In this document: in pieces, positions 19,257 to 20,206 of the stretch
How positions within the stretch are numbered: the first letter of the stretch is position 1
How the letters are laid out: the number at the start of each line of letters is the position of its first letter
Assembly: GCA_951406725.2 (NCBI GenBank)
Contig: OX597823.1
Span: forward strand, 58,962,001 to 59,026,000
Direction: 5' to 3'
Source: Octopus vulgaris
Lineage: Eukaryota
DNA length: 64,000 bases
Program-made: the position numbers and the translations under genes
The notes under the pieces: model-generated
The model's database searches: none
What the model was told of the DNA's origin: nothing
What the model saw: only the letters and a program-made list of their open reading frames with translations

Positions 19257-19488
19257 ATATATATATATATATATGGATAAAAATAAAATAAAATAACGAT
19301 TTTATCAAGTGGTCAGCATGGAAAAAATAACCTTCAAAGGTAATAATTATAAATTAGGGTATCTACGAGATACCACCATGCTGAAAATAGCACCTATGAT
19401 CTGACTCTAAAACCACCTTAATTGTCCACATATCAACACGGAGAGAAAGCAAAGAGACAGCATGAAATTAGTAAAACATTACTGGATA

Positions 19489-19547
19489 ATTCTAGATCAC
19501 GGATTTCTGACTTTGCATTTAGTAATGCTTTGCCTCGTTAGGAGAAT
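19489..19547 (-). ncRNA. Hammerhead ribozyme, mutated core (CUAACGA)
   Basis: attctc-CTAACGA-ggc aaa gcatt acta aatgc aaa gtc a-GAAA-tccgtg-ATC-tagaat. Confidence 0.6.
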
Positions 19548-19883
19548 ACACACAGAAGGGAAACATAAATACATATATATATATAAGCACAACATACGAA
19601 TAATTATTACCTTTGAAGGTTATTTTTTTCCATGCTGACCACTTGAAAGAATCGCTATTTTATTTTTAAATTAACGATCTTATTTATTTATATAAATTTT
19701 AATTTATTTCGTCACTGTATTTACTGCGGCGATATTTTGACCATATCTCACATGTAATTAAATGGCGGGCATTTTGAAAAGGCCATGATGAATACGTGCA
19801 TATATATGTATGTATACGGTCGTATATGTAAGTATTCGTATGTTGTGCTTATATATATGTATTTATGTTTCTCTTCTGTGTGT

Positions 19884-19942
19884 ATTCTACTGAGGAAGCG
19901 AAGCATTACTAAATGCAAAGTCAGAAATCCGGCATCTAGAAT
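19884..19942 (+). ncRNA. Type I hammerhead ribozyme (core intact; predicted cleavage after C19936)
   Basis: Perfect stem I ATTCTA/TAGAAT; CTGAGGA; stem II with GCATT-acta-AATGC; GAAA; 2-bp stem III with ccggc loop; AUC triplet. Confidence 0.75.
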
Positions 19943-20089
19943 TATCCAGTAATTTTTTACTAGTTTTATCTTGACTCTTTGTTTTCTCTCCGTGTTGATA
20001 TGTGGACAATTAAGGTGGTTTTAGAGTTAGATCATGGCTGCTATTTTCAGCATGGTGGTATCTTGTAGATACCCTAATTTATAATTTTA

Positions 20090-20124
<35 letters not shown>

Positions 20125-20167
20125 TATTAAAATTATAAATTAGGATATCTACAAGATACCACCATGC

Positions 20168-20206
<39 letters not shown>

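Follow-up and report, generated by a model that had tools for sequence, protein, structure and literature searches.

A decayed, inverted hammerhead element of retrozyme size in Octopus vulgaris, probably moved by Penelope-like proteins

Introduction

Non-LTR retrozymes are short tandem units that carry type I hammerheads and are expressed as circles (Cervera and de la Pena 2020, PMC7229834). They are argued to be non-autonomous derivatives of Penelope-like elements (PLEs), and one of nine tested dimers was found to cleave (Li et al., bioRxiv 10.64898/2026.07.22.740005). PLE insertions are described as having an inverted, 5′-truncated copy at their 5′ end, a tail at one end and a bias towards (TA)n (PMC8557442). 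Their head-to-head junction shows an overlap and a palindrome, and the inversion may also come about by self-priming (PMC3846280). Hammerhead pairs on opposite strands, 100-700 bp apart, and the idea of a circular template are given by Cervera and de la Pena (2014, PMC4209133). The PLE protein of the anole cuts AT-rich DNA and extends both strands; two internal RT starts define the tail, and insertion in vitro is independent of hammerhead cleavage (PMC11167929).

The window analysed here is a stretch of 64,000 nucleotides of Octopus vulgaris (GCA_951406725.2, contig OX597823.1, positions 58,962,001 to 59,026,000, forward strand); all coordinates count from its first letter. It consists of microsatellite-dense, AT-rich DNA with transposon fragments. 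It includes a locus, HH2, whose unit resembles metazoan non-LTR retrozymes (PMC7229834; bioRxiv 10.64898/2026.07.22.740005): it is short, non-coding and low in GC (<50%), has one type I hammerhead and head-to-tail joints, and co-occurs with a PLE. Its 490 bp stand against 150-450 for the retrozymes of PMC7229834 and 51-972 for those of bioRxiv 10.64898/2026.07.22.740005. Unlike the arrays formed by retrozymes, HH2 is an inverted monomer plus a stump, and an extra A precedes its GAAA. Features shared with EN+ PLE insertions (PMC3846280; PMC8557442; PMC11167929) are the head-to-head inverted 5′-truncated copy, the palindrome or overlap at the junction, the tail at one end, the AT-microsatellite target and the hammerhead near the 3′ end. 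HH2 differs from these insertions in having no RT-EN ORF and a tail of ~67 nt, the usual PLE tail being shorter (30-40 nt).

The hammerhead itself, with its 6-bp stem I and its stem III, is nearer to the canonical form than minimal PLE hammerheads are. It is like the PLE hammerhead variants of PMC4209133 in its long stem II, its palindromic loop III, the G10.1-C11.1 pair of its family and its occurrence in opposite-strand pairs a few hundred bp apart. The consensus in that paper has its additional base 5′ of stem II, where HH2 lacks one; in HH2 a single A is added 3′ of stem II instead.

HH2 probably arose by one old insertion of a non-autonomous element of ~490 bp and of the non-LTR retrozyme type, which a Penelope-like RT/GIY-YIG protein would have moved in trans. 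Judged from the sequence, the locus would work like a PLE-mobilised retrozyme, its strict membership in that class being incomplete. It adds one animal family to the retrozyme/PLE class, with a retrozyme-sized unit inserted with an inverted copy, a palindrome, a tail and (TA)n.

Anatomy of the locus

BLAST within the window found three related arms at the locus and no further copies in the window. An inverted left arm (B-A) lies head-to-head with a right arm (A-C-B), which is followed by a 44-bp inverted stub. The features are as follows.

19255..19276, no strand: (TA)n tract at the left outer end; likely target site.
19279..19350, minus: segment A of the left arm (BLAST), or 'tail'; it holds the first ~67 nt of the following unit and leads into (TA)n.
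19345..19606, minus: segment B of the left arm (BLAST); 5′-truncated inverted copy that starts at unit position 19829.
19489..19547, minus: second hammerhead copy, core broken.
19599..19608, no strand: perfect 10-bp AT palindrome at the head-to-head inversion junction.
19600..20089, plus: right arm; one complete ~490-bp unit, A-C-B.
19600..19690, plus: segment A.
19691..19828, plus: segment C, present once in the window.
19884..19942, plus: type I hammerhead, predicted to be cut after C19936.
20046..20089, plus: end of B; stem strand, 7-bp hairpin (20057-20073) and AU-rich end running into (TA)n.
20090..20127, no strand: (TA)n tract separating the right arm from the third arm.
20128..20171, minus: third arm; inverted copy, 44 nt long, of the B end, which meets the right arm tail-to-tail across (TA)n.

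The left arm at 19345-19606 (minus) matches 19829-20086 at 238 of 262 columns (91%), and 19285-19350 (minus) matches 19600-19666 at 94% over 67 columns. These BLAST matches bear out the segment order given by an earlier sequence-only reading of this DNA, which had the left arm as B-A and the right arm as A-C-B. The third arm is the reverse complement of the B end at 43 of 44 positions. All three arms terminate in (TA)n.

The unit is non-coding, with 31% GC. Its length was taken from the joint in other copies, where 20087 and 19601 are separated by 3 letters. As had been proposed, the right arm (19600-20089) amounts to one unit, whose length, ~490 bp, is slightly above the ~480 bp first given for it. 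No ORF of 100 aa or more was found in the unit region, and an RT + GIY-YIG ORF between pLTRs is absent at the locus.

Segment A of the left arm differs from that of the right arm at 3 of 66 positions, and segment B at 20 of 258 aligned positions. The insertion is considered old because of the latter difference. An assembly artefact, in which one copy would have been folded back on itself, is hardly conceivable: assemblies are known to have difficulty with inverted PLEs (PMC8557442), but the arms show these 20 differences, many of which match family letters in independent runs.

A TATATATA run is found at 19851-19860, ~30 bp upstream of the hammerhead, and is unequal in length between the arms. 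TATA-like boxes have been noted in pLTRs (PMC3846280); the run may be a mere microsatellite.

The hammerhead and its decay

The right-arm hammerhead was found at 19884-19942, where it had first been read. Stem I has 6 of 6 Watson-Crick pairs (19884-89/19937-42), and the core consists of CUGAGGA (19890-96), GAAA (19924-27) and AUC, with C at 19936. The core positions C3-U4-G5-A6-N7-G8-A9, G12-A13-A14, A15.1-U16.1 and H17 are intact. The extended stem II with an A-rich internal loop, also part of the first reading, is made of 3 bp, an AAA/AAA-type internal loop and 5 bp. A strict type I pattern gives one match in the window (both strands) and none in 150 dinucleotide shuffles.

Damage to both copies had been overlooked. 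Pair 10.1-11.1 of the right arm, usually G-C, is an A-C mismatch (19897/19922); its stem III has a C-C mismatch (19929/19933) and retains 2 bp. An extra A (A19923) is inserted between C11.1 and G12, directly before GAAA, in both arms. The left-arm copy is broken: its core reads CUAACGA (G5 to A), outside the core pattern, and the stem I pair adjacent to the core is a C-U mismatch. It retains G10.1-C11.1 and a 3-bp stem III. The changes private to the right-arm hammerhead are at 19897, 19900 and 19933. Hits without a paired 10.1-11.1 were rejected as cryptic mutants in PMC3088659. The ribozyme of the right-arm copy is probably weak or dead.

The extra A is not part of the consensus core, and cleavage may be impaired by it throughout the family. 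AGAAA is found in one of the ~56 rows of the supplementary alignment of PMC4209133 (Fig. S3). With Rfam, no hammerhead reached the gathering score anywhere in the window, and none was obtained in 17000-25000 at E<=10; the Rfam matches in the window are hairpin and microsatellite noise only. Taken alone, the motif has no better fold than its shuffles (z +0.25), and the full hammerhead was not obtained in minimum-energy folds of the motif, the linear unit or the circular unit. A self-duplex of the right-arm motif, with its short stem III and palindromic loop, has a predicted energy of -5.9 kcal/mol. Dimers of PLE hammerheads are reportedly treated by Lunse et al.

The repeat family in other sequencing runs

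Parts of the unit were found in 20 of the 24 listed runs (4 coded organisms, 11 studies), none of which contains half of the words of the unit. Contigs were aligned to the unit for 4 of the 24 runs. Three of these, from organisms A, C and D, have 2627, 2134 and 872 contigs on the unit, mostly 90-99% alike, which indicates a large, diverged repeat family; one of the three runs is marked DNA (guessed), and two have no recorded kind. A literature search gave no published description of this family; supplements and subscription papers may hold one. The part of PMC3088659 that was available gives other insertions, not the HH2 locus.

Majority letters are depth-weighted contig shares, for which 40 of 108 substitution rows and 12 of 20 indel rows are listed. 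Contig depth is strongly uneven along the unit and is not equal to copy number; it was therefore not taken as evidence for 5′ truncation or for ends at the cleavage site. The sequence-only reading presupposed a consensus with a catalytic core, and the family majority has one: CUGAYGA, with G10.1-C11.1, a 3-bp stem III that has a C-G pair, and a near-palindromic loop. Position 19897 is G in 99% of contig depth. The stem I pair 19888/19938 occurs as U-A, U.G and C-G. No change at 19923, the extra A, is among the rows listed. Exact motif scans gave no match in metagenome contigs or viral contigs.

The head-to-tail joint 20090-to-19601 was found in 8, 8 and 10 contigs of three runs. Its best side is 46 letters in X3 and 37 in X4; in X1, sides of at least 31 letters are found only at neighbouring joints (46, 37). 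Run X10 (RNA status guessed) has 18 contigs, 43% of which continue into unlike sequence; one contig crosses the joint, with a short side of only 26 letters, and is not counted as bridging; this run was given no weight on expression or circularity. Evidence for tandem units consists of the head-to-tail joint, which the left arm and contigs from 3 organisms both show. Loci with two or more consecutive units were not seen among these contigs, which are short, none of those listed spanning the unit. Since the left arm already carries this joint in genomic DNA, its presence in contigs does not demonstrate circular RNA.

Overlapping contigs cover segment C in all 4 runs aligned. This bears on the possibility that only pLTRs of an autonomous PLE are present, C being an internal deletion or a captured spacer in a few copies and not part of a non-autonomous family. 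A B-A joint would be expected inside any pLTR, one 798-nt contig has ~600 other bases upstream of B, and captured spacers between pLTRs have been described (PMC3846280). Against this, A-C, C and C-B contigs that overlap one another are found in the runs of three organisms, with consistent majority letters, and the region is free of ORFs of 100 aa or more; this origin is very unlikely.

At least 7 opposite-strand joints were found (15 of 27 listed), scattered and each in one contig per run. Loose ends into (TA)n after 19683 were found in 16 contigs of X1 and 10 of X4 (24 of 596 listed); they may mark a fixed 3′/tail end or an internal TA expansion. Loose ends at 19835-19844 are probably internal TA expansions.

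Origin and age of the two arms

The arms were compared with the family at 19 of the 40 listed substitution rows, namely those inside the shared stretches, rows mainly from X10 being left out. A minority letter is common to both arms at 5 positions (19847, 19848, 19908, 19938, 20002); the one at 20002 has a share of 3% or less in the runs. Both arms have the majority letter at 4 positions. At 10 positions the right arm alone deviates from a letter held by at least 83% of depth and the left arm keeps that letter; 19897 (G10.1) and 19933 (third pair of stem III) are among these. The minority letters shared by the arms indicate one template and one event. The two long arms are of common origin, and the HH2 copy is decayed.

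Junctions and the structured B/A joint

The palindrome at 19599-19608 is native to the B/A joint, and 7 of 8 of its letters are those of the left-arm start (unit 19829-19836). The right arm starts and ends at the B/A joint; the third arm ends there too. The ends of the unit thus fall at one AU-rich joint and are not scattered. The unit had been called circularly permuted; if this is taken to mean entry at random, three ends at the same joint lend it no support.

A 9-bp stem (20047-20055/19630-19638) spans the head-to-tail joint and closes two hairpins, giving a predicted three-way junction. The only variant listed in this stem, G at 19638, retains a G.U pair. The joint folds better than most shuffles (z -2.66; 3 of 200 as good), and so does the whole unit (z -2.76; 0 of 100). 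The structured joint, as modelled, may be a signal recognised by the RT. The equivalent joint regions of HH1, an element described below, and of a PLE 3′ end fold no better than shuffles.

The left arm has a tail of ~67 nt, and the right arm has none. The outer ends map to different unit positions (tail end and B end), with no matching terminal inverted repeats. A search for a TSD gave TA-rich low-complexity candidates only, and a TSD would be indistinguishable from the microsatellite. The fixed termini with TIRs or TSDs of a DNA transposon, against which the first reading had set its own, are accordingly not seen at this locus.

A DNA-level fold-back or MITE-like element with an incidental hammerhead-like motif is highly improbable. 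The locus is a long inverted repeat in TA-rich DNA, as such an element would be, but its outer ends are not mirror images, no TSD is discernible and the head-to-tail joint recurs in other copies. Nor does the motif look incidental, given its absence from the 150 shuffles and the compatible pair changes in stem I.

Template and proposed mechanism

The full PLE signature on a retrozyme-sized unit supports PLE proteins as the mobilisers of such units. Head-to-tail copies would be transcribed into an RNA that is uncut or re-ligated at the hammerhead; that the template was in one of these states follows from both long arms, which span the cleavage site intact. A PLE endonuclease would nick the (TA)n tract. 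Primed at nicks in this tract, reverse transcription would start at internal sites within the structured B/A joint or shortly beyond it; counted from the cleavage site, the start for the B end would lie ~150 nt downstream and that for the tail end ~220 nt downstream. Two oppositely oriented cDNAs, one of 328 nt and one of a full unit, would then be joined head-to-head through microhomology at the AT palindrome. The 44-nt stub may be a 3′-end fold-back or stem from another, very small insertion. Within the family, multimers are probably cut to monomers by the ribozyme, which would work best as a dimer formed through the near-palindromic loop III.

HH2 had first been taken for a retro-copy of a circular or multimeric self-cleaving RNA. 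The retro-copy stands; its template would be a circle or a multimer left uncut, and the data do not call for a circle. That reading was made without reference to PLEs or retrozymes, which account for the whole layout, including the B-A 'tail'. That the template was a circle, and not a linear multimer, is somewhat less likely than not.

A more specific proposal is a free circular RNA entered by cDNA synthesis at an arbitrary point, with a stop after exactly one turn. The right arm matches one unit in length to a few bases; if a long multimer were truncated at random, this would be expected in ~2% of cases by a rough estimate. Of the four long arms of HH1 and HH2, three measure 1.0-1.2 units, and none is longer. 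Retrozyme circles have been shown in coral, mussel and axolotl (PMC7229834), and the folding of the whole unit given above also fits a free circle. On the other side, the right arm starts and ends at the AU-rich palindromic joint, where the third arm ends too and which supplies the microhomology at the inversion junction. Since the ends share this joint, a sequence hot spot can explain the one-unit coincidence. A linear transcript of a partial tandem would likewise limit the length to about one unit plus tail, and anole PLE insertion in vitro proceeds without hammerhead cleavage (PMC11167929). Arbitrary entry into a free circle is considered unlikely.

A wider possibility combines two parts: a circular retrozyme RNA that was target-primed and stopped after one turn, and an active extra-A hammerhead present in at least two unrelated families of this lineage. 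This combination is rather doubtful. If true, it would allow the circle-template model of PLE and retrozyme mobilisation to be tested on genomic data, and would reveal an under-described core variant (A between C11.1 and G12) that is missed by standard searches. Hammerhead counts in such genomes would be underestimated if the AGAAA variant cleaves, since Rfam misses it. HH2 would bear on whether circular RNA is the real template if its copies piled up sharply at exactly one unit length or if RNA circles existed. The residual interest lies in the one-turn length and in the AGAAA variant common to HH1 and HH2.

A PLE fragment as helper candidate

A PLE remnant lies ~7 kb from HH2, outside the insertion.

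26780..27228, minus: broken 3′ fragment of a PLE ORF; Cys-linker + GIY-YIG, in two frames (context).

Its GIY-YIG match has an E value of 0.0011, which does not reach the Pfam cut-off. The fragment shares 68% identity over 108 aa with P0001, a protein that has RT + GIY-YIG matches; no locus was found for P0001 in viral contigs. Its Cys linker suggests a Neptune or Nematis type (PMC8557442). Together with its 3′ region of ~600 bp, which ends in a long (TA)n, the fragment occupies 26140-27228 (minus). Compared with this region, the HH2 unit gives a weak, AT-rich match (score 48) that is reached by 8 of 200 shuffles. No autonomous partner for the HH2 unit was identified, this being the one PLE 3′ region compared. 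The fragment shows that such machinery existed in the genome, not that this PLE moved HH2. A hammerhead-like half is present at ~26300-26340: GAAA, then a 6-bp palindrome, the 5′ core being unrecognisable.

HH1 and other repeats in the window

HH1 (21127-21898) lies 1 kb from HH2 and has the same head-to-head inverted build, with tails and microsatellite ends. Its unit is 350 bp, its arms are 371 and 415 nt and its junction overlap is 14 bp. A relationship between the two units was considered and rejected: their local score of 28 is reached by 46 of 200 block shuffles, in keeping with the earlier view of two distinct families. A third copy of HH1 (37334-37596) is ~70% identical, with a decayed core. 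An A precedes GAAA in all three HH1 copies, as in the unrelated HH2.

An inverted repeat at 16273-16507 has 116-nt arms that are 74% complementary and 3 nt apart, with CTGAAGA at 16410; it is possibly an older element of similar build. A two-frame transposase remnant is found at 28392-29260 (Pfam DDE_3, E 4.8e-10) and is presumably of the Tc1/mariner type. The 3′ end of a non-LTR retrotransposon-like ORF (40802-41704; zf-RVT, E 0.00043, not reaching the cut-off) adjoins a long (AAT)n, and a short tail similar to it is found at ~42750-42835. Dispersed repeat pairs at 23454-23753 and 24150-24539, 78-87% alike and spaced by 700-790 bp, are probably SINE-like.
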